Assembly: GCA_041665025.1 (NCBI GenBank)
Contig: JBAYJP010000002.1
Location: forward strand, 196,820-260,819
Reading direction: 5' to 3'
DNA length: 64,000 nt
Source of the DNA: Candidatus Magasanikiibacteriota bacterium
GTDB lineage: Bacteria > Patescibacteriota > Patescibacteriia > Magasanikbacterales > UBA922
Both the position numbers and the translations under genes were made by a program. The first letter of the stretch is position 1. Every line of letters begins with the position of its first letter. Of the stretch, positions 3,506-38,356 are shown in pieces. The notes under the pieces were generated by a model, which saw only the letters and a list, made by a program, of their open reading frames with translations, was not told the origin of the DNA and ran no database searches.

Positions 3506-3532
3506 TTTTTAAAGTAAGAATAAAGATAAAAC

Positions 3533-3560
3533 AAAAAATTCGCCATCAGGCGAATTTTTT
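3533..3560. terminator. Bidirectional intrinsic terminator (aaaaaattcgcc-atca-ggcgaatttttt)
   Basis: Perfect 7-bp GC-containing stem flanked by A-tract and T-tract, between convergent nrdJ and GC-island gene. Confidence 0.7.
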
Positions 3561-3622
3561 GGATCTTACTTTGTGCGCAAAGTTGATGTCCCTCCTTTCC
3601 TCCTTGTGGAACATCATGTTGA

Positions 3623-4198
3623 CTACAGCTCCCATGCGAAGTTCAGCCTGACGCCGAACATCATGAGGTCCATGTCGGTGGTGATGTTGTGAAGATAGCC
3701 GAATGGCAAGATGAGCGTGAGGTGGTCGCTGATGGGGAACGCGGGCATGACCACTGCGCCAACGATATCTTGGTCGGTTGGCGCGCCTCCATCGAAGTCA
3801 TGGACGTATCGATAGATGACCGAAATGCCGAGCAGAAGCGGGGCGTTGTTGATCTTGTAGTTCGCTCCGACCATGACCTGCAGGGCCGGTTCGAACTTCG
3901 CGAGCGACGTGGCGAATGCAGCTTCACCGAAGACACTGAAGCCTTCGCCGACCGGGACGATGAGGTCTACGCCGTGTACGATTCCGACAGGCATCCCTTC
4001 TCCCGTCTTCGTGTCCAGAACGTAGGAGATCTGATTCCCTACACCGATCTTCACCTGGGCGTTGGCTTCGCGTCCGAGGAGGCAGATACCTGTGCTGAGT
4101 ACGACGACGATGAAGAATGCAAGACTGACAAGCACCAGCCTTGCCGTCGTCTCTCCGCATGGCCGGTAGGGATCCTCGATATATTGGGGAGTCTTCAT
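3623..4198 (-). CDS. High-GC island gene: membrane-anchored/secreted beta-rich protein (N-terminal TM/signal, alternating hydrophobic beta-strand pattern, C-terminal aromatic 'NFAWEL')
   Basis: 191-aa ORF with strong SD (caGGAGAcaacaccATG); GC3-rich codon usage (GGC, GTC, CTG, ATC) unlike neighbours; TM segment LVLVSLAFFIVVVLSTGICLLG then ANA|Q. Confidence 0.6.
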   Translation of the reverse strand: MKTPQYIEDPYRPCGETTARLVLVSLAFFIVVVLSTGICLLGREANAQVKIGVGNQISYVLDTKTGEGMPVGIVHGVDLIVPVGEGFSVFGEAAFATSLAKFEPALQVMVGANYKINNAPLLLGISVIYRYVHDFDGGAPTDQDIVGAVVMPAFPISDHLTLILPFGYLHNITTDMDLMMFGVRLNFAWEL

Positions 4199-4364
4199 GG
4201 TGTTGTCTCCTGCCTGGTATTATCACCCCACAGGCTGGGTAGTTGAGAAAGAACATTTCAAGCTTGATAGCACAGTTTATCATGTAAAATTATATTTGTC
4301 AAGCATATTTAGCTAAAATAAGCTAAATAGTTCAGTATTTAACTATGATAATTTTGGTCTATAT

Positions 4365-4393
4365 TTGACAAAAATGGCTTAATCTAGTATATT
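4365..4393 (+). promoter_or_regulatory. Sigma70-like promoter for TrmB-like gene (TTGACA-17nt-TATATT), near-leaderless
   Basis: Consensus -35 TTGACA 4365-4370, 17-nt spacer, -10 TATATT 4388-4393, ATG at 4412 without SD. Confidence 0.5.
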
Positions 4394-4411
4394 TTATCTA
4401 TCATAAAAAAT

Positions 4412-5929
4412 ATGATAGAACAAGAGCTTAAACAACTTGGTTTTCATAAGAATGAGATAAAAGTTTATCTTGCGTTATTTGAATTGGGAAAGGGCAAGGC
4501 CGGCGAGATAATTGAAGCAGCTAATATTCACAGAAATTTGGTATACACCGCGCTAGATGTACTCGTTGGGCGCGGGCTTGTTACTAAAACAAATGTAAAT
4601 GGAATTGCAATGTTCACTCTTAGTTCTCCAGGTAATTTGCTAGAAGAAATTGATCACAAAAGACAATTGACTCAAAAAATTGTGGAAGAATTAAAAAGTA
4701 GGCAAGAAAAAATGTTACGTGAGATAACTATTTTTGAAGGATTTGATGGAATAAAACGAGCGACACGTCAGAATTTTCAAGCAGAAAAAGGTGAGACTGT
4801 GTATGTGCTTGGAGCTTCCACGCACGAGATTCTATCAGACTTATCTATGCGATGGCGCGCGTATGATAAAAAAAGAATAGAGAAAGGAATTGGATTTAAA
4901 GCATTGTATGGGCGAGGAACTGATCAGCACATTCTAGATGGAAAAAATGTATTACCTATGACAGAAGCAAAATACATGCCAAGCGATATTGATGCTCCGA
5001 TGTGGTTCAATATATGTGGTGATGTTAGTTCCATCGTTGCGATAGACAAAGAACCTATTGCAATCAATATAAAAAGCAAACAAATAGCAAATGGTCTAAA
5101 ACAATACTTTAATCATCTGTGGAACCAAAAAACTATAACATTTCAGGGAAATGAGGGTTTTGAAAAGGCTTTTGGTGATATATTACAAACATTACAAAGC
5201 GGAGATGAATTATTGGTTATGGGTATGTTTGATTTTGACCCAGAGTTTGCTCAAATGATTGCACAGTTTCATGAAAAGAGATCGAAAAAAGGCATTAAAG
5301 CAAAGATTTTATTGAATGAAAATGCATGCAAGCTTGGTGACATATTGAAATATTTACCACACACAAATATTAAATACATGCAAAAGGGGATTGTTACACC
5401 GGCAGTATTTCTTTTGTATAAAAACAAGACAGTAATTAGCTTGCCGAACCAAAGGACGTTCATTCAAATAGAGAATGAAGAGGCGACCGAATCGTTTCGT
5501 GTGTATTTTTACAATCTATGGAATCAAGAAGAAAGGATCTTGCAAGGTCCAGAGGCATTAAAAGAACTGTGGTTGGAAGGTATTGACACTAAAGAAATAC
5601 GATGGATTGGAGCTCGAGGTTATTTTGTGGATAATTATCCAAAATTTTTCGAGGAAATATGCCACAAAGCAGAACAGACGTCTGGTCTCAAATGTAAATT
5701 AATTATTGATCCAGGTTTTCGCGGTCATATCTTGACTCGTCTGTCATGGATTGAAACACGTTATAATTTGTCCTCAATAAAAAACCCCAATGCTGTTTGG
5801 CTTTTTGGTAATAAAGTACTTATTATAAGTTGGGCAAAAAAGGAACCAGTGATTTTCCTTACTACGAATTCTACTGTAGTACAAAGCTATAATGATTATT
5901 TTGAAGAATTGTGGAATATGAAAAAATAG
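4412..5929 (+). CDS. TrmB-family HTH transcriptional regulator with triplicated C-terminal domain
   Basis: N-terminus 'KNEIKVYLALFELGKGKAGEIIEAANIHRNLVYTALDVLVGRGLV' matches TrmB wHTH; three internal repeats ending ...YFNHLWNQK / ...YFYNLWNQEE / ...YFEELWNMKK. Confidence 0.7.
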   Translation: MIEQELKQLGFHKNEIKVYLALFELGKGKAGEIIEAANIHRNLVYTALDVLVGRGLVTKTNVNGIAMFTLSSPGNLLEEIDHKRQLTQKIVEELKSRQEKMLREITIFEGFDGIKRATRQNFQAEKGETVYVLGASTHEILSDLSMRWRAYDKKRIEKGIGFKALYGRGTDQHILDGKNVLPMTEAKYMPSDIDAPMWFNICGDVSSIVAIDKEPIAINIKSKQIANGLKQYFNHLWNQKTITFQGNEGFEKAFGDILQTLQSGDELLVMGMFDFDPEFAQMIAQFHEKRSKKGIKAKILLNENACKLGDILKYLPHTNIKYMQKGIVTPAVFLLYKNKTVISLPNQRTFIQIENEEATESFRVYFYNLWNQEERILQGPEALKELWLEGIDTKEIRWIGARGYFVDNYPKFFEEICHKAEQTSGLKCKLIIDPGFRGHILTRLSWIETRYNLSSIKNPNAVWLFGNKVLIISWAKKEPVIFLTTNSTVVQSYNDYFEELWNMKK

Positions 5930-5975
5930 AGAAACATTATTGCTATTTCAGTGCCTTTATGATTAAATCGTTTTT

Positions 5976-6779
5976 ATGTCACCTAGCAATCTAGAAATTT
6001 TGTATAAGTATCTTCAAAAAATCGAACACGTTTCTTATTTTGTTTTACCTGCAAAAGAGTCTGCAAATTGGGTGTTGGTTTTGAGGACATTATTTAGAAA
6101 GTTAAAAGAAGAAATTGGGAATGAAAAGCTACCCGAGTTTCAGGCTGTTTTTAATCTCTTGTGTGAAGATAGAATAAACGAATACAAATTAGCAAAAAAT
6201 TTACATAGTTTTCTTTTAAAATTATATACTAAATCCTTTGATCAATTCAGTAGTTTGCTCGATAACATAGAAAAAAGGTCACTGAATTTTTGGATGAGTG
6301 AAGAACAAGCATATAAGATGCGCATATCAAAAGAAAGGGTTCAAGTTGTCGAACATGATGTATCTCTTTTGCAAAATGAAATGCAGTTATATGCACTTGA
6401 TTATTTTTTTAGCATGCAAAAATGGTTTGCAACTTCTGATAACAAGCAGAAATTGGTACTAATTTTTTATGGGAAAAACAATTTACCTTCACTCAAGGAT
6501 GATGCATTGGAAGATGATATGCTTGACAAAGTTGTATACCAGATGTGGGATTGGAGATTGAAAGTCAAAATGGTGAATGATTATTTTGATTATAAAAAAT
6601 CTTTTGTTAACGCCAAAAAGGAACATATATCGGATAAACAGTTGGTTGAAATTGAAGAATCTCTGCGTCGTTATTGCAAACAGTTGCTTGATATATCAAT
6701 ACAACATGGAATTCAAAAAATTGAAAACGGATTACTGTTGCCATATGGAAATATATATCTAAACAAAATAATCTTATAA
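5976..6779 (+). CDS. Hypothetical protein (267 aa), apparently co-operonic with downstream methyltransferase (1-nt gap)
   Basis: Long ORF, no recognisable motifs; stop 6779 / next start 6781. Confidence 0.5.
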   Translation: MSPSNLEILYKYLQKIEHVSYFVLPAKESANWVLVLRTLFRKLKEEIGNEKLPEFQAVFNLLCEDRINEYKLAKNLHSFLLKLYTKSFDQFSSLLDNIEKRSLNFWMSEEQAYKMRISKERVQVVEHDVSLLQNEMQLYALDYFFSMQKWFATSDNKQKLVLIFYGKNNLPSLKDDALEDDMLDKVVYQMWDWRLKVKMVNDYFDYKKSFVNAKKEHISDKQLVEIEESLRRYCKQLLDISIQHGIQKIENGLLLPYGNIYLNKIIL

Positions 6780-6780
6780 T

Positions 6781-7929
6781 ATGAAATTTTTTGATAGAAA
6801 AGAACCTCCTAAAGAAGATGGTGGGGAAAGTGAAAAGAAAGAAAAGGCCTCGAATTTTAAGTTGAAAGATCTGTTTGCTCGTATTGTTAGAAAGATAACA
6901 AATCTTCTTTCAGCTCCATTTGGTGAATTTGGAGAAGACGAGAAAGAATTATTTGAGCGCCAATTTAATCCGCGTGAATATATTGAATTGTATTATCCAC
7001 CAATAGATAAGGAATCGGTTAAACACATTTCAGATATTTTAGCTCGCGTAGAGGTACGAGAGATGGGTGAAGATGGAGTTAAATTGACAAAGATAGATGG
7101 TAGGCTTTTGGCACGGCAGTTTGAACACGGTTCAACCGAGGGGAAATCCATCGAGTTGCTCGAAAATTATTGCATTTATGATTTTGTAGCTCGAAAGGCC
7201 TTGCCTGCAATGCTTACAAAACGACCTGAGGATCATTTTAGTGTTCTAGATGTTGGCGGTGGGCCAACGGTATATCAGCATATCCCTCTTCTTGGTGTAT
7301 CAGACAAAATTACGCACGCAGAATATTTGGAAGCAAATAGACAAGAGATTGCAACCTGGAAGCAGGAGAAAGGGTACGATTGGTCTAGTTATATCGCATG
7401 CTGGCAATCATACCTCGCACTGCATCCCGAAGCCTATTCAATGGCCATGAAAGATGTTAGAGATGTGTTAGATAATTTATCTACCAAAGATCCGAGCATT
7501 TATAATCAAGAGATGGCTAAACGTATAGAGGACGTAATACCTGTGGATGTTTTCAGCCCAAACATTCTTTCTAGCCAAGAAGGATATGATGCTGTTTCTG
7601 TAGGAAAATGGGGTTGTGTCGATTTGTTAACTTCCCATTTCTGTATAGAATCAGCTACTGCAGATCCCAATAGGTGGAGAATAGGAATAGGCAATATTGC
7701 AAAAAAAGTGAATGAGGGAGGTTTTCTTATTATGACAGCTATTCGAAATGCTGAATGGTATAAGGTGGGGGATAATAAATTACCTGCTGTTCCTGTTGAT
7801 TACACAGCCATAGCAAATGAATTGAAAAAACATGGTTTCAAAGTTCTTGAAGGTACCGAATTACTCACCCATAACCAAAAAGAAGTCGGATATGATGGTA
7901 TGATTTTTATACTCGTTCAAAAACAATAA
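6781..7929 (+). CDS. NNMT/PNMT/TEMT-family SAM-dependent small-molecule N-methyltransferase, with ~60-aa low-complexity N-terminal extension
   Basis: 'FNPREYIELYY' resembles NNMT 'FNPRDYLEKYY'; SAM motif I 'VLDVGGGPTVYQHIPL' resembles NNMT 'LIDIGSGPTIYQLLSA'. Confidence 0.65.
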   Translation: MKFFDRKEPPKEDGGESEKKEKASNFKLKDLFARIVRKITNLLSAPFGEFGEDEKELFERQFNPREYIELYYPPIDKESVKHISDILARVEVREMGEDGVKLTKIDGRLLARQFEHGSTEGKSIELLENYCIYDFVARKALPAMLTKRPEDHFSVLDVGGGPTVYQHIPLLGVSDKITHAEYLEANRQEIATWKQEKGYDWSSYIACWQSYLALHPEAYSMAMKDVRDVLDNLSTKDPSIYNQEMAKRIEDVIPVDVFSPNILSSQEGYDAVSVGKWGCVDLLTSHFCIESATADPNRWRIGIGNIAKKVNEGGFLIMTAIRNAEWYKVGDNKLPAVPVDYTAIANELKKHGFKVLEGTELLTHNQKEVGYDGMIFILVQKQ

Positions 7930-7934
7930 AACAT

Positions 7935-8483
7935 ATGCCCAAAATTTACACTAAAACTGGAGACAAGGGACAAACTTCTCTCCTCGGAGGCAAACGCATT
8001 TCAAAAAGCTGTCTTGAAATGGATGCCATAGGAGAAATAGACGAACTTAACGCTTTCCTAGGTATTTTGATTGAAGAAATAGAGGACGATTTTAAGGCTG
8101 AGAAAAGAAAGTTGATAGGAGTACAACGCAGTTTGTTTGTTGTAGGAGCTATCTTGGCATCAGTTCAGACGAAGTTAATAAAAGTTCCAAAATTAAAAAA
8201 TACAGAAGTTGTAAAATTAGAAACATGGATTGACAAAATGGAAAAGGAATTACCTCGTTTAACTCAATTTATTTTACCAACCGGTGCAGAAGGGGCGACG
8301 TGCAGTTTTTATGCGCGTGCAATTTGTCGGCGTGCAGAGCGACGTATCGTTCAATTATCTAACGTATATCCTTTGGAGCCAATTATTAATACATATATAA
8401 ATCGTTTAAGTGATGTGTTGTTTGTTTTTGGTAGATGGATAAATATGAAAGAAGGAATAAAAGAAATAAAGTGGAAAAAATGA
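7935..8483 (+). CDS. pduO: ATP:cob(I)alamin adenosyltransferase, PduO/MMAB type
   Basis: N-terminal 'KIYTKTGDKGQTSLLGGKRISKS...AIGEIDELNAFLG' hallmark of PduO-type ATR. Confidence 0.85.
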   Translation: MPKIYTKTGDKGQTSLLGGKRISKSCLEMDAIGEIDELNAFLGILIEEIEDDFKAEKRKLIGVQRSLFVVGAILASVQTKLIKVPKLKNTEVVKLETWIDKMEKELPRLTQFILPTGAEGATCSFYARAICRRAERRIVQLSNVYPLEPIINTYINRLSDVLFVFGRWINMKEGIKEIKWKK

Positions 8484-8837
8484 TTAAATAAAAAAACCGC
8501 CTCGGTCACTGCTTTTCGGCTTTATTTGTTTGAGTTTAAATAAAGCGGAGGTGAGATAGATGAAAGCAGTTTGCGCTGAGACGGTCTTTTTTAACCTTCC
8601 ATACAGATCGAGTACATAGGTAGCTAATTGAAGTTGAGTAGTTTAATATCCTCCTAATCCCCATGTTTTGTGTTTGTGTTTGTATTGTAGTTTTTACATA
8701 CGATCACCTCCTCAAAATTAATGGTAAGTTAGCTTCAGGAGATGTGCAGTCCCCTTACTGATAGTATTACTCATACAAAGTTAGTATAGTATCTCTACAT
8801 AACAAGTCAATCGCACACAACCGGGAAAGTGGATAAT

Positions 8838-8937
8838 GAGTGTATATCCTATGGATAAATAAAGGATTCTATAGTTACTCCTCGGCTCGGAAAAACAAAT
8901 GTGAATTTGCTCTTCTCTCACCTGCCTCGTAAATAAA
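8838..8937 (+). repeat. ~95-nt repeat element copy A (second copy at 38075-38160, opposite strand); contains GNRA hairpin caaat-GTGA-atttg
   Basis: ~90% identity with revcomp of 38075-38160, including 'TAGTTACTCCTCGGCTCGGAAAA' and 'TTCTCTCACCTGC'; followed directly by terminator. Confidence 0.7.
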
Positions 8938-8939
8938 AA

Positions 8940-8965
8940 ATACTGAACTGATTCAGTATTTTAGT
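8940..8965. terminator. Bidirectional intrinsic terminator (aatactgaa-ctga-ttcagtatt + T-tract)
   Basis: Perfect 9-bp inverted repeat flanked by A/T tracts, between repeat element and tRNA-Leu. Confidence 0.65.
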
Positions 8966-8968
8966 GTG

Positions 8969-9052
8969 TGCCGCGGGCGGGAATCGAACCCGCACTCTCT
9001 TGCGAGAAAGGGATTTTAAGTCCCTCGTGTATACCAGTTTCACCACCGCGGC
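8969..9052 (-). tRNA. tRNA-Leu (anticodon TAA), type II with long variable arm
   Basis: Manual fold: acceptor GCCGCGG/CCGCGGC, anticodon loop CTTAAAA, variable arm hairpin TCTC-GCAA-GAGA, T-arm GCGGG-TTCGATT-CCCGC; CCA not encoded. Confidence 0.8.
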
Positions 9053-9103
9053 ATGTCTAAATTATTGAGAAAATCATACCATATACTTGTGAAGATATCA
9101 AGG

Positions 9104-9132
9104 TTGACAAAATCGCAGTAATTGCCTATACT
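9104..9132 (+). promoter_or_regulatory. Sigma70-like promoter upstream of ftsH (TTGACA-17-TATACT)
   Basis: -35 TTGACA 9104-9109, 17-nt spacer, -10 TATACT 9127-9132. Confidence 0.5.
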
Positions 9133-9174
9133 CCCTCTTACTTTTATTGTAGAATTACTTTATATTTAAGTTAT

Positions 9175-11031
9175 ATGAAACACCTCGTAAAAAATTTTAT
9201 ATTAGTTTTTCTTACCCTTTTGCTCGTGGCGGCACTCCTCAGTACAGCCAATTTTGGTGGCGCGCAGAAAGCAGAGCAAGTAGGCATTAGCCGCCTGGTA
9301 ACTGAAATTAATAATGACAATGTCTCTGCTATTGAGGTCCAGGGCGATTTGATAAAGATCACTCTCAAAGCAGAAAATACACCACTTTTGGAAGTCAAGA
9401 AAGAAGCCGGTCAATCTTTTTCTGAGCTTATGAGCAATTATGGCGTAGATACCCAAAAACTTCAGCAAGTGAATGTCCAGGTAAAAGATCAGTCAGGGTG
9501 GAAATTTTGGGTTGCAGCTCTTGCACCGTGGCTTTTGCCCATATTGTTGTTTGTGGGCATTATTTATTTTTTTAGCCGTCAAGTACAAGGAGCAAATAAC
9601 CGAGCAATGGGATTTGGTCAAAGTACTGCTCGCCAAGTAAAACCAGATGATAAAAATAAGAAAACATTCGCTGACGTGGCAGGAGCCAAAGAGGCAAAAG
9701 AAGAGTTGCAAGAAGTGGTTGAATTTTTGAAAGATCCAAAACGATTTACTGATATGGGGGCCAAAATTCCAAAAGGTGTTTTGCTCATGGGCACACCAGG
9801 AACCGGTAAAACATTGCTTGCAAAAGCTGTCGCAGGAGAGGCAAACGTGCCATTCTTCCACATGAGTGGTTCTGAATTTGTAGAAATGTTTGTCGGTGTG
9901 GGTGCATCTCGCGTACGTGATTTATTTAACAAAGCAAAAAAAGCCGCTCCCGCTATTGTATTTATTGATGAAATTGACGCCGTGGGGCGCAAGCGTGGCG
10001 CAGGACTCGGTGGTAGTCATGATGAACGCGAACAAACACTCAACCAAATTCTTGTTGAAATGGATGGGTTTGATCCAAACCTCGGTGTGATTGTCGTCGC
10101 AGCAACCAATCGTCCTGATGTACTTGACCCAGCACTTCTTCGTCCCGGTCGTTTTGATCGCCGTGTAGTGATTGACATGCCAGATATCAATGATCGCGAA
10201 GAAATATTAAAAGTTCATGCCGTAGGTAAACCAATTGTCAAAGATGTTTCATTGCGAAAAATTGCAGAACGCACCCCAGGATTTTCTGGTGCCGATCTTG
10301 CAAATCTTTTGAACGAAGCTGCGATACTTGCGGTACGTAGAAATAAAAAACAAGTTGAAGAAGTAGATGTCTTGGAAAGTATTGAAAAAGTAATTCTCGG
10401 ACCGGAAAAAAGATCACGCGTCATGACAGAAAAAGATAGAAAAATGACTGCGTATCACGAAGCAGGACATGCGATAGTTGGACATTTTCTTCCACACTGT
10501 GATCCGGTTAGAAAAGTTTCTATTATCGGCCGTGGTATGGCAGGCGGATATACATTGTCTATGCCAGAAAACGATGTACGTTACAAAACGCTTATTCAGT
10601 TCAAAGATGAATTGTCTATGATACTTGGAGGCTATGTAACTGAGAAAATGATTTACGGAGATGAATATATTAGCACAGGTCCTTCGAGTGATTTAAAAAA
10701 AGCAACTGAATTGGCTAAGTCTATGATTTTGCGTTATGGCATGAGTGAAAAGCTTGGACCTCGCCAATATGGCGAAAATGATGAACTCATATTTTTGGCT
10801 CAAGAAATACATGAAAAAAGAAATTATAGCGAAAAAACGGCTGAACTTATTGATGTGGAAATTGATAAATTGTTGAGTGATTCTATAACACGCGCTGAAA
10901 ATATTATCAAAAAACAACGCAAGCAAATGGATGATTTGGTGGCAGTTTTGCTCAAGAAAGAAACTGTCGAACAGGATGAATTTAAACTGATTATGGGCCA
11001 CGAAGTAGTACATGACGTGGAAAAAAATTAG
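9175..11031 (+). CDS. ftsH: ATP-dependent zinc metalloprotease FtsH
   Basis: N-terminal TM, AAA+ Walker A '[23 protein letters not shown]', zinc motif 'HEAGHAIV', 618 aa. Confidence 0.95.
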
Positions 11032-11123
11032 ACAGATATTACAAAATACTAAAAAGATATTGAAAAGAAATTAAGATATTTACATTGATAAACTGTTTAT
11101 TGTTGACAGACTTATATCGCGTT

Positions 11124-11163
11124 CGTAACTTTATAACTTTACAACTTTCGACTTTATAACTTC
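11124..11163 (+). repeat. Tandem heptad/octad array 'nnAACTTT' (gtaACTTTataACTTTacaACTTTcgACTTTataACTTc); related copy on opposite strand at 17424-17462
   Basis: Direct visual repeat; ~34/38 identity with revcomp of 17424-17462. Confidence 0.6.
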
Positions 11164-11164
11164 A

Positions 11165-11185
11165 CCCCGCCTTGTGGCGGGTTTT
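11165..11185 (+). terminator. Intrinsic terminator hairpin ccccgcc-ttgt-ggcggg + tttt (ftsH terminator or attenuator before rlmI)
   Basis: 6-bp GC stem, tetraloop, T-tract; 12 nt upstream of the next ATG. Confidence 0.55.
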
Positions 11186-11196
11186 CGTTAGGACGT

Positions 11197-12384
11197 ATGA
11201 CTACTACATTGCCACAATTAATTCTCAAGCCAGGAAAAGAAAAACCAATAAAGAATTTTCATCATTGGATTTTTTCGGGCGCTATAAAACAATTCCCCAA
11301 AGAAGCAGAAGATGGCGATTTTGTGAACGTGTATAGTTCAAGTGGAGAATTATTGGGCAGTGCGTATGTGAACCGTAAGACTTCAATTACTGCACGCATG
11401 GTGTCTTTTGATAATGCCGAACCTTTGGATTCAATTGTTAGCCATATGGATAAGGCAATTGAAATGAGAAAGAATTTTTTTGATGATAAACAAACAAATG
11501 CATACCGTTTAATAAATAGCGAAGGAGATGGTATCCCAGGTTTAGTTGTAGACAAGTATGATGATGTGATTGTGGTACAGATAACAACACTTGGCATTGA
11601 AAAAATAAAAAAAGATATTGTAAATTATCTGGTTGCAAAATTAAAACCAATTTGCGTGTATGAACGGTCAGATATGCCTTCACGCAGAGAAGAAGGTTTG
11701 AAAAATCAGGTTGGATTGCTATATGGCGAAGACATAAAAGAAAAAATAATTAAAGAATGCGGGGCATTATTTAAGGTAGATTTTATTGACTCACAAAAAA
11801 CAGGATTTTTTCTGGACCAACGCGAGATGAGACAGCACGTAAAAAAACTAGCCAGTAATAAAACTGTTTTAAATTGTTTTTCATACACGGGAGGATTTTC
11901 TGTTGCCGCGGCTCTCGGTGGTGCTAAAAAGGCTGATTCAGTAGATATTTCAGACCCTGCAATTGAATTAGCTAAGGAAAATTTTACTCTCAATAATCTT
12001 AGTCTTAATTTCAATTCTTTTTTTACTGCAGATGTATTTGAATTTTTGCGTAAGGACTCAATCAAAGATGTATATGATTTTATTGTGCTTGATCCGCCAG
12101 CATTTGCAAAAAAGAGGGGAGATGTTGTACAAGCATGTAGGGGTTACAAAGATATTAATCGTCTCGCGTTACAAAAAATAAAATCATCAGGAATTCTTGT
12201 TACTTCATCTTGTTCATACTATGTGGATGAAAAGTTATTTCAACAAGTTGTGTTTGAAGCGGCGGTAGAGGCAAAACGTTCAGTGCATATTATTGATAAA
12301 CATCATTATGCGCCTGATCACCCGGTAAATATTTTTCATCCAGAGGGAAATTATTTGAAGAGTTTGGTGTTGTGGGTGGAATAA
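11197..12384 (+). CDS. rlmI: Class I SAM-dependent rRNA methyltransferase, RlmI/RlmK (PUA + MTase) family
   Basis: 'FSYTGGFSVAA' SAM motif, 'VLDPPAFAK' motif IV, 395 aa, N-terminal PUA-like region. Confidence 0.75.
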   Translation: MTTTLPQLILKPGKEKPIKNFHHWIFSGAIKQFPKEAEDGDFVNVYSSSGELLGSAYVNRKTSITARMVSFDNAEPLDSIVSHMDKAIEMRKNFFDDKQTNAYRLINSEGDGIPGLVVDKYDDVIVVQITTLGIEKIKKDIVNYLVAKLKPICVYERSDMPSRREEGLKNQVGLLYGEDIKEKIIKECGALFKVDFIDSQKTGFFLDQREMRQHVKKLASNKTVLNCFSYTGGFSVAAALGGAKKADSVDISDPAIELAKENFTLNNLSLNFNSFFTADVFEFLRKDSIKDVYDFIVLDPPAFAKKRGDVVQACRGYKDINRLALQKIKSSGILVTSSCSYYVDEKLFQQVVFEAAVEAKRSVHIIDKHHYAPDHPVNIFHPEGNYLKSLVLWVE

Positions 12385-12451
12385 TATAGAAATTGGAAAT
12401 TAGGGAAAGAAAATATTGAAAAAATATTGGGATATTGAGATATTATTAAAC

Positions 12452-12484
12452 AAAAAACCTCCGCTATAAACGGTAGGTTTTTTG
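12452..12484 (+). terminator. Intrinsic terminator after rlmI (aaaaaacctccg-ctataaa-cggtaggtttttt)
   Basis: Stem with one bulge followed by T-tract. Confidence 0.6.
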
Positions 12485-12582
12485 TCCTGTTTGTGCACAA
12501 GTTAGGTGTGCCGGTTTTTTACATGCCCACGGCCGCATGGATGACCAGTCCTTGCTAGTCTTTCCTCCTTGTGTGATGATGG

Positions 12583-13017
12583 TTACTTCCAGTACTGCTC
12601 GAAGTATTTTTCCATGCTCATGAAGTCAACCTGAAGTTCAATACCAAACCCGTAAGCGTAAGTAAAGTAACTGAAGACGCACAGTTGGTCATAATCGTAG
12701 GGAGAGTTGAGCTTGTGGGAGAGAGCCTCTTCCACATAACTCTCCGTGATTTCGATTACGACTCTTCCATCTTGCTTTGTGAATTCTTCTTCCCTTTTAG
12801 TGAGTTCCTCCCACTCTCTTTGACTTGTTACCTTTCCATGGGGCAAGAGTCCTGCTTCTTGCAGGAGTTTTGCCGTGCCCAGCACGAGATGAGGGGTTGA
12901 ACCTGGCATTACTTCCTCTCCCTGTTGTTGAGAACGTGGCGTAACCAGATATCGGTCCCGTCGTTTTACGGCTGATGGGACGGCGAAAAGAACATAGAAC
13001 CATCCGGGGTCGGTCAA
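12583..13017 (-). CDS. High-GC island gene 2b: hypothetical protein (144 aa)
   Basis: GC-rich codons; ATGA start/stop overlap with upstream gene; 'CTTTCCTCCTTGTG' motif 10 nt past stop as in island 1. Confidence 0.5.
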   Translation of the reverse strand: MTDPGWFYVLFAVPSAVKRRDRYLVTPRSQQQGEEVMPGSTPHLVLGTAKLLQEAGLLPHGKVTSQREWEELTKREEEFTKQDGRVVIEITESYVEEALSHKLNSPYDYDQLCVFSYFTYAYGFGIELQVDFMSMEKYFEQYWK

Positions 13018-13439
13018 ACGGAAAACCTAAAAGGATTTCTTTCGAAGATATTGCTTACATCTTTCTCCGTCTCTTTACCAGCGGAATTGTGCTTCCACAT
13101 GATCTTGTCACCGATCTGCGTGAATTCGCTGTTGATGGGGATGTAATTGATGACCGAACCAGTCACCCATGGGGTAGATCCTTCTTGGACATGTGCGAAT
13201 TCAGTTTCACCGTCGTCCAGAAGACGGTAGACGACCAACTCGTACGAGAATTGACGTACTTCAACGCCAATTGAAAACGCCTGTGGACCCTCTACCTCTT
13301 TCTTGTCAATCAGAAGGAGCAGGAACAGAAAACCCCACCCAATTTTTTCGTTGAATCCAAACCCTTCGCAGCTGTACGCCGACCTTGCGTCCATGATTTT
13401 TCTTTCAGCTTCCTTGCGACGCTCCCTCAGGCTTTTCAT
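13014..13439 (-). CDS. High-GC island gene 2a: hypothetical protein with one hydrophobic segment (start taken at internal Met with GGGAG SD; ORF extends to 13466)
   Basis: 'GGGAGtcaccaaATG' SD before Met10; GC-rich codon usage; hydrophobic 'IGWGFLFLLLLI'. Confidence 0.5.
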   Translation of the reverse strand: MKSLRERRKEAERKIMDARSAYSCEGFGFNEKIGWGFLFLLLLIDKKEVEGPQAFSIGVEVRQFSYELVVYRLLDDGETEFAHVQEGSTPWVTGSVINYIPINSEFTQIGDKIMWKHNSAGKETEKDVSNIFERNPFRFSV

Positions 13440-13620
13440 TTGGTGACTCCCCCATTTCGGGTACATTTTGCAGGCATTGGTGCCTACAGTGTTGCCTTCC
13501 CTGTGAAGAGGATATTATATAGTAATATGATATTTGACAAGAGTATACGTCTTAATAAATTTATAATTTTGTCATAAATAAGCTAATTTTCTTGTTAATA
13601 AAATATATTGTCGGAATAGA

Positions 13621-13649
13621 TTGACACAAAATAGACTATATAATATACT
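13621..13649 (+). promoter_or_regulatory. Sigma70-like promoter for second TrmB-like gene (TTGACA-17-TATACT), leaderless-type
   Basis: -10 ends 9 nt before ATG 13659; upstream shares 'ATATTTGACAA' and 'AAATAAGCTAA' words with the 4330-4370 region. Confidence 0.5.
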
Positions 13650-13658
13650 GTTTATCAT

Positions 13659-14456
13659 ATGAACCCACAACTATATAAACAACTCCAAGATGTTGGCTTG
13701 CAGGATAATGAGGCAAAGGTATACCTGGCCTTACTTGAGATTGGTAGGGGAACAGTTACCCAAATTAGCAGCCGTGCAGGTATGAACCGCACAACTGGCT
13801 ATGATATTTTGGAGCGTCTTAGTTTGCACGGACTTGTAAATCCAGTTATTACAAGCAAAAAGAAAAGAATATATGTGCCTGAACCACCTATACGCCTCAA
13901 ACAATTTTTGGAAAATAAAAAACGGCAAGCAGAGCGTCGTTTGAATGAAATCGGTTCATTATTACCAGAGTTGCAGGCGCTGTATAAGACCGAGCTGAAA
14001 CCAGTAATTAAGGTTGCGGAAGGAAAAAATGCTATGCAAAAGCTCTATATGAATGTAACTGAATCAAACAGCACTATATATTCTATATTGAATTTGAAAG
14101 GGTATGCGGAAGCATTTGATGAAATGGGAACAATACAGTCTGAAGAACGATTTAAAAAGGGAATAAAAGAAAAATGTTTGGCCGTGGATAGTGAAGTTGC
14201 GCGATGGTGGCATGATAAAACGTACAAAAAACAAAGTAAGGCTCGACAGGAGAATACAACATACCACTGGTTGCCGTGGGATGACCGGTACAAAACTGCA
14301 GGGGAAGTTAATATATTTGATGATAAAGTAATAGGCGTGCTATCTAAACCTGAAGAGAGTATAGCGTTTGAGATTCAAAGTCAGACTTTTGCTGACTTTT
14401 TGAAATTAGTTTTTGAGATGGCTTGGAAGAATACAAAAGGAAAAAACTCGGAATAG
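13659..14456 (+). CDS. TrmB-family HTH transcriptional regulator (single C-terminal domain), paralog of 4412-5929
   Basis: 'DNEAKVYLALLEIGRGTVTQISSRAGMNRTTGYDILERLSLHGLV' TrmB wHTH; C-terminal ends 'FADFLKLVFEMAWKN' like repeat ends of the other paralog. Confidence 0.7.
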   Translation: MNPQLYKQLQDVGLQDNEAKVYLALLEIGRGTVTQISSRAGMNRTTGYDILERLSLHGLVNPVITSKKKRIYVPEPPIRLKQFLENKKRQAERRLNEIGSLLPELQALYKTELKPVIKVAEGKNAMQKLYMNVTESNSTIYSILNLKGYAEAFDEMGTIQSEERFKKGIKEKCLAVDSEVARWWHDKTYKKQSKARQENTTYHWLPWDDRYKTAGEVNIFDDKVIGVLSKPEESIAFEIQSQTFADFLKLVFEMAWKNTKGKNSE

Positions 14457-14482
14457 AGTAAAAATGGAGAATGTGATATAAT

Positions 14483-14569
14483 ATGTACGAAATGCGAAAA
14501 CTTCGAAAGGTGCGAAAATGGCGATTTCGAATTTTTCGTAGATTTCGTGTTTCGTACATACATTAAAAT
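14483..14569. repeat. Palindromic TACGAAA-repeat element (terminal IRs atgtacgaaa...tttcgtacat); family member also at 57659-57734
   Basis: 10-bp perfect terminal inverted repeat plus internal cgaaa/tttcg words; sits in 5' leader of membrane-protein gene. Confidence 0.65.
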
Positions 14570-14597
14570 TGTTATTTTAGAGATAAACTTATTTAAT

Positions 14598-15584
14598 ATG
14601 CATGAACCAACCTATCGTGATGCATTCAAAGCAAGCTGGGAGCTTGCGTGGCATCATAAGTCTTTGTGGATTTTTGGATTGTTTGCCGCATTTTGGGGCC
14701 AACTGGGCATTATGGAATTATTGGCCAAAGTAGTATTTGGTGCAAGCACGCTTCATACGCCATCAGCATTTGTGTATGCAGTAAACTTTTTTACACAATA
14801 TAATTTCGTCGACTTTGCACGTGTGTGGCATCCAGGTTTGGATACTTGGGTATGGACATTATGGCTTGTGGTGATTTTTGTTGGTTTTGCGGTATTTCTT
14901 GCCTTCATTTCTACTGTTTCACAGGGTGCAATTGTACATAGTGCTGAAAAGTACATGGAAAAAAGAAAGAAAAAGTTTGAATCAAGCTCTGTCTCATGGC
15001 ATGAGAGCAGAAAATATTTCGGTAAATTATTTGCTTTGAATATTTTGCGCAAGATTATTGAAATCGCGTTTATTTCGTTTGCTGCATGGGGCATGGCAAA
15101 TGCCTTGATTGAGCCAAATGGATCTGATGTCGCGTTATTCTTGTTTTTGTTTGTACTTGCAGCTTTGATGGGAATGGTATTGTCTTTTATGCTCGTATAT
15201 TCAACAGGCTACGTAGTTATTGAAAAGAAAAAATTTGTTGAATCGCTTCACATGGCATGGAGACTTTTTACGCGCCATTGGCTCGTATCGTTTGAAGTCG
15301 GGTTTTTACTCATGCTTGCCAATCTTGTGCTTGTTGCACTTGTGCTCGTGGGGTTGTATCTCTTATTTTTACCAAGTCTTGTTATGTGGCTTATTGCATT
15401 TGCCATACAGAGTCAAGGTCTATATATTGCAGGTATGTTTCTTGGTTTTGGTTTATTTTTGGTCTATCTCGCCATACTTGGTTCAATGTTTACGGTATTT
15501 GTTACTTCCACCTGGTCATATTTGTTTGCGAAAATGCACAGAGAAGGTGTGGTGAGCAGAGTTGTACATTTTTTTAAACGATAA
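14598..15584 (+). CDS. Polytopic membrane protein of unknown function (ORF extends to 14547 via GTG inside the palindromic element)
   Basis: Multiple hydrophobic helices; ATG 'MHEPTYRD' chosen because upstream part lies within repeat element. Confidence 0.55.
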   Translation: MHEPTYRDAFKASWELAWHHKSLWIFGLFAAFWGQLGIMELLAKVVFGASTLHTPSAFVYAVNFFTQYNFVDFARVWHPGLDTWVWTLWLVVIFVGFAVFLAFISTVSQGAIVHSAEKYMEKRKKKFESSSVSWHESRKYFGKLFALNILRKIIEIAFISFAAWGMANALIEPNGSDVALFLFLFVLAALMGMVLSFMLVYSTGYVVIEKKKFVESLHMAWRLFTRHWLVSFEVGFLLMLANLVLVALVLVGLYLLFLPSLVMWLIAFAIQSQGLYIAGMFLGFGLFLVYLAILGSMFTVFVTSTWSYLFAKMHREGVVSRVVHFFKR

Positions 15585-15651
15585 ATTTCACATAACACAT
15601 AACATTCTTTCATGCATCATTCTGAATTTAGCATTCTGCATTATATAGCAT

Positions 15652-17418
15652 ATGCCGACCGGTCTCCCATCCATTGATGATTTAATTCCAAAAAAAACTA
15701 GTTTACCAACGGATGATTCTTCGGTTACTCAAAAAACAGCCGTACCGCTCAATGTCTCCCAGTCAGGTGCTGAAGAAAAATTTGGTAAAAAAATGGATGA
15801 AATAAAAAAGAAAGAACTGGAGACAGAAGCCATGCGCTTTGCTTCGCAAATTGGTGTACCGCACGTTGATCTCAAAAAATTTCCTGTTACTCACGAAGCG
15901 CTTAAGCAAGTTCCGCTCGAGACCGCAAAAGAATTGGGAGTTGTCTGTTTTTATGCAGATCAAGATGAACTGCGTTTTGGCGCTATTGATCCTACTCTCG
16001 ATGAGGTGAAGACTCTCATAGAAGAAGCCAGCGCTCGCTATCATGCAAACAGCGTAGTGTATGTCGTATCTGAGGTAAGTTTGGAAAGAGTATTGGAAAT
16101 GTATAAAGGCATGCCTACCATAAAAGCAATTAGCAAAGATATTGAAATTACCGCAGAGAGCCTGGATAATGTAAAAGCGCAGGTGGATGATTTTAAAACA
16201 GTAGATGAGCTTCTTCAGAAAAGTACCACGACAGATATTATTACTATTCTACTTGGTGCGGCGCTCAAAGTTGACGCATCAGACATCCATGTTGAAGCAG
16301 AGCAAGACAAGGTGGCTATTCGTTTTCGTTTGGATGGTATTTTGCATGATGTTTCCATGTTGCCCAAAGACATGCTGCATCAGCTCCTGTCGCGTATCAA
16401 ACTTACTTCATCGCTTAAAATTAACATTACTGACAAACCGCAAGACGGACGTTTTACCATAAAACTTGAAACTGGTGATGTAGATGTCCGTGTGTCAACT
16501 ATTCCGACTGTATTTGGAGAAAGTGTTGTCTTGCGTCTTCTCATGCAACACCAGGAAGGAATTTCTCTTGATGGACTTGGATTTTCACAGCGTGCCCTTG
16601 ATATTATTCGGCAAGAAATTTCTCGTCCGAATGGTATGATTATCACTACTGGTCCGACCGGAAGTGGTAAATCTACGACATTGTATGCGGTTTTGAAAAT
16701 TTTGAATAAGCCAGGTGTGAAAATTATTACGCTTGAAGATCCGGTGGAATATCGTCTTGAGGGAATCAACCAAAGCCAAATAGAACATGAGAAAGGATAC
16801 ACATTTGCAAAAGGATTGCGCTCAATTTTACGTCAAGATCCAGATATCGTCATGGTCGGAGAAATTCGTGATGGAGAAACAGCTGAAATTGCTATCCAGG
16901 CCGCATTGACCGGGCATCTGATGCTTTCTACATTGCATACCAACAGTTCTGCAGGTTCAATTCCCCGTTTGCTTTCTATGGGTGCGCAGTCATTTTTGCT
17001 GGCGCCAGCACTCAACTGTGCTATGGGACAGCGACTTGTACGGCGTGTATGTTCGACATGTCGAAAACAAGTTGCATTGTCAGCTATGGCGCCGCATGTT
17101 CAGGAACGAGCACAAAAAAATATTGAACTTATGCCAGAAACAGAACGAACAAAATTTTCTCAAAAAGAACTTTTGTTTTATACCTCAGTAGGATGCAAGG
17201 ATTGCAATGGTATCGGATACAAGGGGCGCATAGGAATATGTGAAATTTTCCAGGTTACCGATGAAATTAAAGATTTAATTTTGTCAGGCGTTGCGGCTGA
17301 ACATGAGATAGAAGATCATGCACGCAAACAAGGTATGACAACTATGGTTCAAGATGGTATACTTAAAGCCGCGGAAGGAATTACGACATTGGATGAAATA
17401 TTTCGTGTTATTGATTAA
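15652..17418 (+). CDS. pilB: Type IV pilus / type II secretion assembly ATPase (PilB/GspE family)
   Basis: Walker A 'GPTGSGKSTTLYA', 'GEIRD' , C-terminal Cys4 'CSTCRK...CKDCNGIGYKGRIGICE'. Confidence 0.9.
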   Translation: MPTGLPSIDDLIPKKTSLPTDDSSVTQKTAVPLNVSQSGAEEKFGKKMDEIKKKELETEAMRFASQIGVPHVDLKKFPVTHEALKQVPLETAKELGVVCFYADQDELRFGAIDPTLDEVKTLIEEASARYHANSVVYVVSEVSLERVLEMYKGMPTIKAISKDIEITAESLDNVKAQVDDFKTVDELLQKSTTTDIITILLGAALKVDASDIHVEAEQDKVAIRFRLDGILHDVSMLPKDMLHQLLSRIKLTSSLKINITDKPQDGRFTIKLETGDVDVRVSTIPTVFGESVVLRLLMQHQEGISLDGLGFSQRALDIIRQEISRPNGMIITTGPTGSGKSTTLYAVLKILNKPGVKIITLEDPVEYRLEGINQSQIEHEKGYTFAKGLRSILRQDPDIVMVGEIRDGETAEIAIQAALTGHLMLSTLHTNSSAGSIPRLLSMGAQSFLLAPALNCAMGQRLVRRVCSTCRKQVALSAMAPHVQERAQKNIELMPETERTKFSQKELLFYTSVGCKDCNGIGYKGRIGICEIFQVTDEIKDLILSGVAAEHEIEDHARKQGMTTMVQDGILKAAEGITTLDEIFRVID

Positions 17419-17423
17419 TGATT

Positions 17424-17462
17424 AGTTATAAAGTTGAAAGTTGTAAAGTTATAAAGTTCGAA
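17424..17462 (-). repeat. AACTTTAT heptad array, inverted copy of 11124-11163
   Basis: revcomp = ttcgaactttataactttacaactttcaactttataac. Confidence 0.6.
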
Positions 17463-17473
17463 TTGGCAAATTG

Positions 17474-17508
17474 ATATGTGATGTGTGCTATGTGATATGT
17501 GAAATATG
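17474..17508 (-). repeat. Heptad 'nTAnCAC' repeat array (4 copies) upstream of 17576 gene
   Basis: minus strand reads tttCACatatCACatagCACacatCACatat. Confidence 0.5.
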
Positions 17509-17575
17509 TTGAGATACATAGAGATAAATTGAGATAAAATTTTCGAAAATCAATATTTAATATTTTTAAAACGCT

Positions 17576-21670: not shown

Positions 21671-21704
21671 GATATTGGGAAAATATTGGATATTAGGATA
21701 TTTT

Positions 21705-21762: not shown

Positions 21763-21894
21763 AGCCCATCGTTTAAAAAAGAACGAAATAAGTTTGTATA
21801 AGATGTAAATTTATTTTGTCCTTTTTATTTTTGCTCAGTCGGGTACCTTAGCCCCGCCAGCGTGACGCGGCGGGTTTGACCGAGGAGTGTTGAG

Positions 21895-22107
21895 TTGAAA
21901 AAGATCGAGTTGAGGTCCCAAGCGGACCCGATGTCGCCGGCGCTTCCGCCGGCATGGTTCGTGATTACCGTCGAGGGGGAGGAGGTCTTCGATACGTTTC
22001 GGTTCGCGAGCGGTTGTGCGGCCGGAGTCGCTTTGGGCCAAATTCAGAGACACGGTCACGCCGAAATGCTCGACGAGGCTCGTCGTCTCTATGAGTGCTT
22101 CGTGTAG
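21895..22107 (+). CDS. High-GC island gene 3a: small hypothetical protein (70 aa, TTG start, GAGGAG SD)
   Basis: GC3-rich; 'GAGGAGtgttgagTTG'; stop TAG embedded in 17-bp hairpin. Confidence 0.45.
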   Translation: MKKIELRSQADPMSPALPPAWFVITVEGEEVFDTFRFASGCAAGVALGQIQRHGHAEMLDEARRLYECFV

Positions 22108-22142
22108 CTGGACGGGACAAAATCCCCCGTCCAGCTACACGA
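22100..22142 (+). other. Perfect 17-bp stem hairpin (tcgtgtagctggacggg-acaaaatcc-cccgtccagctacacga) between island-3 genes
   Basis: Exact reverse complementarity verified by hand; overlaps stop of gene 3a and abuts ATG of gene 3b. Confidence 0.8.
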
Positions 22143-22513
22143 TGCGTCTCGAGAAGAACGGTGAGCGCGAGACGCTCGTTGTGGAGGGACAGCGAACCCT
22201 TCACGACGGGCGGGTCAAGCACTTCGAGACCCGAAGCGTCGAGTGGCTCACCGGTCAGACGACCGAGCCGATCGGGACGGGAACTAAGTTCCTCGGTGTT
22301 CTTGGTGGGGAGGAGGAATTCCTCTTCCGTCCCATGCCCGTTTTCGGCGTCCCCGGTCGCTTGCTGTCTCGGGCCGGTCTGCTCGACTTCCTCCGCGACC
22401 GGGGTGTCGCGACGTCGGTCGACACACGGAGATGGCGTGAGGCCGAAAAGTCCGACGGCGACCCGGAAGACGAGGACTTGGCCGGGGCCGACGACCCTGT
22501 CTCCGGGGACTAG
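22142..22513 (+). CDS. High-GC island gene 3b: hypothetical acidic-tailed protein (124 aa)
   Basis: GC3-rich codon usage; in-frame ORF extends upstream to 22016 but overlaps gene 3a. Confidence 0.45.
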   Translation: MRLEKNGERETLVVEGQRTLHDGRVKHFETRSVEWLTGQTTEPIGTGTKFLGVLGGEEEFLFRPMPVFGVPGRLLSRAGLLDFLRDRGVATSVDTRRWREAEKSDGDPEDEDLAGADDPVSGD

Positions 22514-22526
22514 CCCGCGCTGAAGT

Positions 22527-22679: not shown

Positions 22680-22680
22680 G

Positions 22681-38333: not shown

Positions 38334-38356
38334 ACTTTTCTCGATCACGTATAGAG

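Follow-up and report, generated by a model that had tools for sequence, protein, structure and literature searches.

Why do GC-rich genes at two places in one genome, each lying back to back with a gene for a TrmB-family regulator, carry the same 14-nt sequence just behind their stop codons? The question was raised by a stretch of 64,000 nt (contig JBAYJP010000002.1, positions 196,820 to 260,819; hereafter the window) on a contig of 440 kb from Candidatus Magasanikbacteria (Parcubacteria, candidate phyla radiation), whose genome has a GC content of 39%. The window contains three outlying GC-rich segments, at ~3540-4280 (island 1), ~12500-13470 (island 2) and 21780-22720 (island 3). An earlier sequence-only reading had proposed that islands 1 and 2 represent a duplicated module of regulator plus cargo, or a cassette with a conserved recombination or landing site. 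We consider it fairly probable that the two islands are copies of a self-contained TrmB-linked expression unit that is widespread in Parcubacteria, and that they share a homologous block of 3' untranslated region (3'UTR) and terminator.

The 14-mer CTTTCCTCCTTGTG occurred exactly twice in the window (3595-3608 and 12560-12573), and no further copy was found at up to two mismatches. Both copies lay just 3' of a minus-strand stop codon, as had been claimed; the claimed distance of 10-15 nt applied to island 1 (14 nt; stop codon at 3623-3625) but not to island 2 (9 nt; stop codon at 12583-12585). The near-palindromes (3570-3584 and 12490-12503), the terminators and the TrmB-family genes were also found where they had been described. 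Taken alone, the 14-mer repeat carries little weight, as two or more matches at up to two mismatches arose in 5 of 100 shuffles. Chance is excluded, however, by the 3' end of island 2. Window positions 12448-12572 aligned to the 3'UTR that follows the orthologue of the island-1 cargo in the related locus L003 (74% identity over 126 nt; E=8e-18), and the 3' end of island 2 is therefore homologous to that of the island-1 gene family. L003 was found through its long TrmB protein (68% identity) and has the gene order of island 1 (ribonucleotide reductase, GC-rich cargo orthologue, TrmB). It carries 12 of the 14 bases of the 14-mer at the equivalent place after its cargo stop codon.

Sequence comparison indicates that a homologous 3'UTR block of ~90 nt separates the cargo stop codon from a bidirectional terminator, and that the 14-mer marks its proximal and the near-palindrome its distal end. 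Read on the gene strand, its elements are a Shine–Dalgarno (SD)-like purine tract directly behind the stop codon, a pair of hairpins, an A-run, GGCAC with a third hairpin (the near-palindrome) and the terminator. Island 2 has the full block (12487-12573, minus strand). Here the stop codon and 9 nt are followed by the 14-mer, which reads CACAAGGAGGAAAG on this strand (12573-12560), hairpin 1 (GACUAG-CAAGGA-CUGGUC; 12560-12543), hairpin 2 (CAUGC-8 nt-GCAUG; 12539-12522), an A-run, GGCAC, the palindrome hairpin TTGTGCACAA (12490-12503), another A-run and the terminator; the distal palindrome, UUGUGCACAA, has the outer pairs CCU/AGG. In island 1, the 14-mer (3595-3608, minus strand; the same gene-strand sequence) provides an SD-like tract 14 nt past the stop codon and is followed by a second GGAGGG. 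The distal 3'UTR core is kept as well (3556-3592, minus strand; GGGAC, the hairpin CUUUG-CGCA-CAAAG at 3570-3584 and an A-run), together with the terminator, and the two inner hairpins are absent. We also considered a pairing of the 14-mer with the pyrimidine tract in the cargo 5'UTR and dropped it, because there was no covariation between the window and L003.

The evidence for the hairpins was read by eye from the sequences and from an alignment (A6). Between the window and L003, 3 of 22 positions differed in the inner stems, comprising one compensatory pair in hairpin 1 (G:C to A:U) and one change from G-U to G:C, whereas 7 of 14 positions differed in the loops. Locus L004, whose TrmB is 57% identical, has a more diverged version of the block and adds double changes from A:U to G:C in both hairpins (alignment A6 and the L004 sequence). 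Substitutions were thus found mainly in the loops. The z-scores of the folds ranged from -2.4 to -3.5, and the sequence of the third hairpin varied by genome while its pairing was kept. The SD-like tract was also present 3' of the cargo stop codon in L004, L005 and L007. The core of GGCAC, hairpin and A-run was found 3' of genes of the cargo 1 family in L009, L010, L011 and L014, whose TrmB proteins are 36-42% identical to that of the window.

The predicted terminators of the two islands (3532-3561 and 12451-12484) are hairpins with an A-run before and a T-run after them, and the same type is predicted at 22650-22682 in island 3. These were the only three clear hairpin terminators of the A-tract/T-tract plus GTT type in the window, and all of them are at the islands. 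The pattern CAAAAAA-N12-32-TTTTTTG matched only two sites in the window, one being the island 1 terminator. This putative bidirectional intrinsic terminator (3530-3561, CAAAAAATTCGCC-loop-GGCGAATTTTTTG; from a terminator scan) is common to the cargo gene and the convergent ribonucleotide reductase gene, and it resembles the terminator of the distant cargo-family locus L014. The one of island 2 (12449-12484; AAAAAACCTACCG-loop-CGGAGGTTTTTTG on the gene strand) is of the L003 type and homologous to the L003 cargo terminator. A scan of the window at the gathering thresholds of Rfam 15 returned only three tRNAs, and in permissive scans of both islands no match came close to threshold. As a separate observation, ATATTGG/ATATTGAG repeats occur at 12413-12444 and 21683-21702, shortly after the stop codons of the plus-strand genes that precede islands 2 and 3, and at island 2 directly before the bidirectional terminator.

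Is the unit found elsewhere? A TrmB gene divergent from GC-rich cargo was observed in the window, in L003, in L004 (three pairs), in L005, in L007 and in ~20 metagenomic loci, in agreement with the common locus architecture described in the sequence-only reading. The productive query for the metagenome scan was a TrmB alignment; a scan with a three-sequence cargo alignment found nothing. The association of TrmB paralogues with GC-rich genes held for the long type (370-540 aa) and is not general, as most short TrmB proteins (~240 aa) elsewhere had no GC-rich neighbour. At other long-TrmB loci the cargo position is occupied by different families of ~200-aa, beta-rich proteins with signal peptides and GC3 (GC content at third codon positions) of up to 0.87 (L015 4211-4810, L017 4215-4892, L018 4212-4823, L024 3983-4582, L026 4153-4770 and L019 4108-4758); one of these families ends in ...GLKFNL, another in ...RYHLFF. 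This suggests that the long TrmB type may be tied to small exported barrels in general. We found no paper describing TrmB-linked units in Patescibacteria in the literature.

Both window regulators matched the Pfam TrmB family PF01978, with 47.6 bits (4412-5929) and 56.3 bits (13659-14456) against a cut-off of 25.6. Scores against the NCBIfam equivalogs NF040851 and NF047390 were only 23-31 bits, with cut-offs of 600-650, and were confined to the N-terminal 90-155 residues. The match to the PDB structure of TrmB (3QPH) covered only residues 3-139 (E=0.007). With TrmB/TrmBL1 of Thermococcales and haloarchaea the window proteins share the N-terminal winged-helix TrmB domain, a palindromic sequence, here a presumed operator, near the regulated promoter in an autoregulation-type divergent geometry, and a weak PLD-like match in the C-terminal part. 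Unlike these regulators they are bacterial, stay far from the equivalog cut-off (28 vs 650 bits), have extra repeated C-terminal domains in the long form and lie beside a regulated gene that is a predicted exported beta-barrel and not a sugar transporter. To our knowledge, the operator described below also differs from the Thermococcales TGM motif.

In island 1, the regulator TrmB505 (4412-5929, plus strand; 505 aa) has an N-terminal TrmB helix-turn-helix followed by repeated C-terminal domains, and its putative promoter is at 4365-4393. A domain ending in YF..LW is present in three repeats, and there is a weak match to PLDc_2 (E=0.02; residues 258-316). The divergent cargo 1 (3623-4198, minus strand) encodes 191 aa with a GC content of 0.57 and GC3 of 0.74, and AGGAG as its upstream SD sequence. 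A promoter-like site, TTGACA-17-TAAACT with TG, lies at 4274-4302 (minus strand), which would place the transcription start so as to give a 5'UTR at ~4199-4267. Between the two promoters is the inverted repeat TTTAGCTAAAATAAGCTAAA (4308-4327), the only match in the window and the presumed binding site of the long TrmB. Its motif, TTTRGCT-N6-AGCYAAA, was found in eight loci at a distance of 93-148 nt upstream of the long TrmB gene, with 13 matches in 605 kb, and its half-sites changed together (TTTAGC/GCTAAA to TTTGGC/GCCAAA). From this pattern we infer that it is the long-TrmB operator.

The AlphaFold2 model of cargo 1 (predicted local distance difference test score, 90.9) shows an N-terminal helix followed by eight strands, and Ail, NspA, OmpX and the OmpA barrel were among the top Foldseek matches in the PDB (E 5e-5 to 2e-4). 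Cargo 1 is thus predicted to adopt the eight-stranded outer-membrane beta-barrel fold (OmpX/Ail/OmpA-TM), with eight strands behind an N-terminal signal-type helix. The likeness includes a Foldseek probability of 1.0, a TM-score on the target of 0.5-0.6, the signal-type N-terminus and a hydrophobic/aromatic C-terminal strand; sequence identity to these barrels, in contrast, is only 8-16%, and the match to the YfaZ family (Pfam PF07437) stayed at 16.1 bits under a cut-off of 23. The phylum is regarded as single-membraned and lacking BamA. Apart from the YfaZ match, Pfam and NCBIfam searches of the cargo proteins returned nothing. An exhaustive HMMER search of 1.84e9 proteins gave 40 representatives of the cargo 1 family; protein word-index searches with cargo 1 and with the two island 2 cargo proteins returned only the query itself.

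Genes of the cargo 1 family were paired with a divergently oriented TrmB gene in every readable context but one, and this TrmB was usually one of 370-540 aa. The exception was L039, where the cargo gene is convergent to TrmB and the operator is kept upstream of the cargo. The closest TrmB pairs were also the closest cargo pairs (TrmB/cargo identity 0.98/0.84, 0.80/0.63 and 0.68/0.42), which argues that the two genes are largely co-inherited and that the cargo evolves faster. Only close pairs are informative here, as cargo identity saturates at 25-35% and the correlation over all pairs was uninformative (rho 0.07). Island 1 would accordingly be an ancient, mostly vertically inherited pair of regulator and beta-barrel, its fast-evolving cargo being predicted to be exported. 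The 5'UTR of cargo 1 was conserved with that of L003. These cargo 5'UTRs are GC-rich and share an ACCC...GGGU hairpin (window 4199-4267, L003 5635-5700); together with those of L004 (6893-6991 and 9733-9831) they may be undescribed cis-regulatory leaders.

Island 2 contains two cargo genes on the minus strand, both encoding proteins without relatives (ORFans) and unrelated to the cargo of island 1. Cargo 2a (13014-13439; NCBI locus tag WCW16_02540) encodes 141 aa, has GGGGGAG as its SD sequence, a GC content of 0.47 and GC3 of 0.55; cargo 2b (12583-12909) encodes 108 aa, with the SD sequence GGAGAGGAAG, a GC content of 0.46 and GC3 of 0.52. A promoter-like site for the presumed operon, TTGTCA-17-TAATAT, lies at 13512-13540 (minus strand). 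The divergent regulator TrmB265 (13659-14456, plus strand; 265 aa; promoter-like site at 13621-13649) is only a distant paralogue of TrmB505 (E=4.5e-9). Both regulators had been described as having leaderless-type promoters; this fits TrmB265, which is effectively leaderless with a -10 box ending 9 nt before the ATG, but TrmB505 has a leader of ~11 nt. Two words reported as common to the promoter regions, ATATTTGACAA (4361 and 13530) and AAATAAGCTAA (4316 and 13576), indeed occurred as exact matches only in these two intergenic regions, yet the regions did not align beyond the promoter boxes. The former amounts to a TTGACA -35 box and its AT-rich flank and gave 9 matches at one mismatch, compared with 4.3 expected; the latter is half of the island 1 operator and has no inverted partner in island 2. 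Island 2 thus did not arise by recent copying of island 1: the regulators are distant, the promoter regions do not align and most short TrmB genes lack a GC-rich neighbour. The 3' block is what the two islands share.

Evidence that such units are shuffled came from related genomes. The operator, the promoter and a 99-nt stretch of 5'UTR (76% identity) recur in units 9265 and 6809 of L004, whose TrmB genes are different paralogues and whose cargo genes are unrelated. Units M1 and M2 of L011/L013 have the terminator and ~70 nt of 3'UTR in common and carry different cargo. L010 and L013, both from one sample, contain the same 2.4-kb unit (89% identity from the cargo terminator to the end of TrmB), which is joined to the RecA terminator in L010 and to an ABC-permease terminator in L013. 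The switch lies inside GGCGGATTTTTTGTTT, and in L010 an 11-codon relic of the permease gene directly follows the TrmB stop codon. These patterns fit homologous recombination at repeated 3' blocks, for which a dedicated recombinase would not be required. Horizontal transfer and genomic islands have been reported in Patescibacteria, with frequent gene exchange (PMC12455944). As regards the proposed duplication of a regulator-plus-cargo module, the homologous 3' motifs and the UTR sharing in L004 and L011/L013 speak for it, whereas a recent duplication of the pair as such is not supported, given the distant regulators, the unrelated cargo and promoter regions that do not align. The view of islands 1 and 2 as a duplicated, recombination-shuffled unit is partly supported by these sequence comparisons.

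L004 has further repeats. Dispersed intergenic families occur in five copies (9080-14716) and seven copies (5105-16696), among them a 63-nt unit ending in GAGCTGGCTACTAGAGGACGTTAGAACT and a near-identical terminator, CAAAACAACACCTGTAAAGGTGTTTTTTTGTTT; a 905-bp tandem duplication lies at 16687-18601. 

The GC content of the cargo genes (0.57 in island 1, 0.46-0.47 in island 2) compares with 0.30-0.43 in the adjacent genes. Ordinary window genes, including those for RecA and RpoB, had GC3 values of 0.25-0.41. Among 21 non-redundant pairs, cargo GC3 exceeded that of the partner TrmB in 19 (for example, 0.74 vs 0.29 in the window and 0.82 vs 0.27 in L039), and co-inherited cargo with a GC3 of 0.5-0.87 stood beside TrmB partners with 0.2-0.5. 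SD sequences preceded all three scored island genes, in comparison with none to four weak ones among 38 other genes of the window. In 27 AT-rich loci they were found at 10 of 19 GC3-outlier genes and 38 of 281 ordinary genes, an excess that is only suggestive because GC-rich sequence inflates the count. Many Parcubacteria are reported to lack an anti-SD motif (PMC9297842). Almost no window gene had an SD sequence (e.g. 4412, 5976, 9175, 52185-53240 and 57747), clear ones being seen only at the GC-rich island genes, and several promoters were so near the ATG that their mRNAs would be leaderless or nearly so. The islands therefore look foreign in three independent ways, namely GC3, SD sequences and terminators. 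Such a pattern would normally point to a recent transfer; for cargo 1, this conflicts with the synteny, which is conserved at 28-43% protein identity. Translational selection was rejected as the cause of the high GC3, as the RecA, RpoB, FtsH and ribonucleotide reductase genes in the window have GC3 values of 0.32-0.36. Amino-acid composition was also rejected, the excess being mainly at the third codon position (GC2 0.37). No cargo protein matched a PHROGs or PADLOC profile. A phage origin of the cargo was dropped because viral contigs scanned with the 3' block pattern and with cargo 1 gave no match.

Could the 14-mer and the palindrome be an att- or attC-like site at which a recombinase inserts GC-rich cassettes beside TrmB genes? 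All three islands are discrete GC-rich segments, each with SD-led open reading frames (ORFs) and a terminator of its own, imperfect hairpins are present in the block, one unit has moved with a breakpoint in a hairpin terminator, and a GTTRRRY-like core is found in island 2 (GTTAGGT, ACCTAAC on the other strand) and in L003 (GTTGAGT). The same check for RYYYAAC/GTTRRRY, however, gave one core per element and failed in island 1 (GTTGATG) and in L004 (none). No integrase or transposase was present among the neighbours scanned, cassette arrays and a matching repeat at the 5' boundary were likewise lacking, and the 14-mer, which varies between genomes, is missing both in island 3 and in five other GC-rich islands of L004. 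Moreover, the cargo of island 1 is syntenic with its regulator across genomes with TrmB identities from 27-30% to 68%, and the L010/L013 junction, in ~16 nt of common sequence, is explained by ordinary homologous recombination. The landing site of the sequence-only reading is thus not supported, and we regard such a site as very unlikely. Somewhat easier to entertain, though still unlikely, is the idea that the cargo derives from an operon of a GC-richer, SD-using donor and that the SD-like tract, now without function, was once the ribosome-binding site of a downstream gene that has been lost. This would account for the strongly SD-like cargo leaders and 14-mer in an organism without SD sequences, in a group in which many members have no anti-SD motif (PMC9297842), and L007 does have a second GC-rich gene after the cargo. 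Against this, the conservation of the block matches that of the coding sequence: its identity between the window and L003 is 74%, compared with 68% for the amino-acid sequences of TrmB. Substitutions in the block are compatible with the hairpins, and the tract is kept at the same place in loci with TrmB proteins only 30-57% identical. Nor does a conserved ORF follow the tract, the candidate peptides differing in length and sequence.

The last point also bears on an independent small gene in the block, either an SD-started peptide across hairpin 1 (MRPWACKK... in island 2) or a small or antisense RNA on the plus strand with an anti-SD-like CCUCC. Island 2 and L003 both have an ATG 23-24 nt past the SD-like tract, a spacing that hairpin 1 could shorten, and the first eight codons are alike (MRPWACKK vs MRPEACKK); on the plus strand there is CCTCCTT with a weak terminator-like hairpin. 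The change from W to E, however, represents three base changes inside the hairpin loop, the peptides are unrelated past codon 8 and run into the terminator, and L004 and island 1 have no equivalent ORF. A conserved small ORF after the tract was rejected on these grounds, in agreement with the earlier remark that no usable start codon follows it. No Rfam match was obtained, and no plus-strand promoter was found ahead of the block. A small gene is, in our judgement, less probable still than a recombination site. Finally, chimeric joins and a chance 14-mer could be invoked, as an exact 14-mer repeat is not rare in 64 kb and was approached by the shuffles mentioned above. But island 1 was recovered in independent ENA and Logan assemblies and is therefore no assembly chimera, the architecture recurs in many genomes, and island 2 aligns to L003. 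Coincidence or artefact is already refuted by these observations, and its probability is negligible.

Several points weigh against our preferred reading, a TrmB-linked unit with a shared 3' block. We infer the promoters, the limits of the UTRs and the strand on which the element acts from the sequence. In four genomes the innermost four bases of the third hairpin can pair with themselves (TGCA, TGCA, GTAC and AGCT), and a symmetric site acting at the DNA level would account for this no less well than an RNA loop. Only three copies of the full block were found (island 2, L003 and, as a variant, L004), so that the covariation rests on three sequences. MAFFT and RNAalifold returned no consensus structure for eight distal 3' cores, MAFFT being unable to put hairpins of unequal length in register. 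As the promoter region of island 2 could not be aligned to that of island 1 beyond generic promoter boxes, the 3' block may be all that island 2 has gained. The L010/L013 relocation comes from another genome pair and could reflect general rearrangement at repeated terminators. The TrmB-linked unit also leaves unexplained why the cargo stays GC-rich beside an AT-richer, co-inherited regulator, and what role an SD-like tract has in a genome that does not use SD sequences.

With these reservations, we propose that the unit consists of a TrmB gene back to back with its cargo, the latter comprising a promoter, an SD-bearing 5'UTR, one or more GC-rich coding sequences, a structured 3'UTR and a bidirectional hairpin terminator. 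The regulator would bind the palindromic operator in the common promoter region and control the cargo promoter. The 3' block would form the 3' end of the RNA and stop transcription in both directions, as hairpin covariation and terminator anatomy suggest; it is complete in island 2, whereas island 1 would have lost the two inner hairpins. Because block and terminator are repeated within a genome, they could act as homology patches for the duplication of cargo units, their re-pairing with other TrmB paralogues and their relocation. These events are seen in L010/L013, L011 and L004 and would apply to the window by extension.

The units resemble integron cassettes in being promoter-dependent, compositionally foreign and often ORFan, with an imperfect hairpin at the end and with cargo that varies in a constant frame. 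They differ in that the window has no IntI among the scanned neighbours, no arrays and an R'/R''-type core in only one of two copies; each unit has its own regulator and terminator, and the L010/L013 junction lies in a common terminator. In minimal mobile elements of Neisseria, cargo likewise differs between conserved flanks without a mobility gene, in organisms thought to be naturally competent. There the flanks are housekeeping genes, whereas here they are the UTRs and terminator of one unit with a dedicated regulator. Correia, REP/BIME and ERIC elements are short repeated 3'-end hairpins that serve both in termination or RNA stability and as substrates for recombination, as the 3' block may do; its copy number, at two in 64 kb, is low by comparison. 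The STAB-SD of Bacillus thuringiensis cryIIIA is an SD-like mRNA stabiliser in the 5'UTR that blocks 5'-to-3' decay. It is similar in having a strong SD-like tract (GAAAGGAGG-like) that is not used to start translation of an ORF, and different in that the window tract lies in a 3'UTR, in a genome otherwise without SD sequences.

Island 3 (21895-22682, plus strand) contains two SD-led ORFan genes (21895-22107, preceded by GAGGAG, and 22142-22513) with GC contents of ~0.60-0.65 (0.64 over 22001-22500). The two are separated by a hairpin, and an A-tract/T-tract terminator like those of islands 1 and 2 closes the island (22650-22682). It has neither the 14-mer nor a TrmB neighbour. The genes flanking islands 1 and 2 encode ribonucleotide reductase, a methyltransferase, FtsH, Cob_adeno_trans and unknown proteins, with one unit per locus. 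Elsewhere in the window, intergenic tandem repeats with units of 7-9 nt are found at 11126-11162, 14482-14560, 17424-17458, 17472-17502, 26783-26813, 38052-38083, 47396-47423, 49050-49128, 54045-54094 and 57659-57734. The unit is specific to the locus, and the repeats often form long AT-rich inverted repeats; those at 11127-11161 and 17424-17458 are 97% complementary over 35 nt. They may be gene-end structures that replace canonical terminators. An 81-nt inverted repeat pair (88% complementary; 8866-8946 and 38075-38155) has its arms 29 kb apart, one near a tRNA-Leu gene (8968-9052) and the other ~200 nt from a tRNA-Ser gene (38356-38443).

Beyond the TrmB-linked unit itself, a wider reading is possible, which we put forward only tentatively and hold to be rather doubtful. 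Parcubacteria would have a recombinase-free cassette-type system in which TrmB regulators gate terminator-bounded units of foreign style (GC-rich codons, SD leaders and canonical terminators), with OmpX-like beta-barrels and many ORFans as cargo. The 3' blocks would be the sites of swapping and relocation, and the otherness of the cargo would be functional and not the trace of a recent transfer. If this is true, the otherness might reflect a separate translation regime, or proteins bound for the outer membrane of a double-membraned host.

Bacteria of the candidate phyla radiation are mostly uncultured, and their gene regulation and their interaction with hosts are largely unknown. The locus defines a testable conserved set, consisting of a long TrmB, the operator TTTRGCT-N6-AGCYAAA and a predicted exported eight-stranded barrel. 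Because outer-membrane-type barrels are unexpected in a phylum regarded as single-membraned, these proteins are candidates for functions at the cell surface or in the host membrane. The lasting contrast in GC3 and SD sequences is not predicted by standard amelioration and may provide a handle on selection at the level of codons and translation, or on biased gene conversion, in tiny genomes. Shuffling at repeated terminators, in turn, suggests a simple route for the gene exchange that has been reported in this group (PMC12455944).

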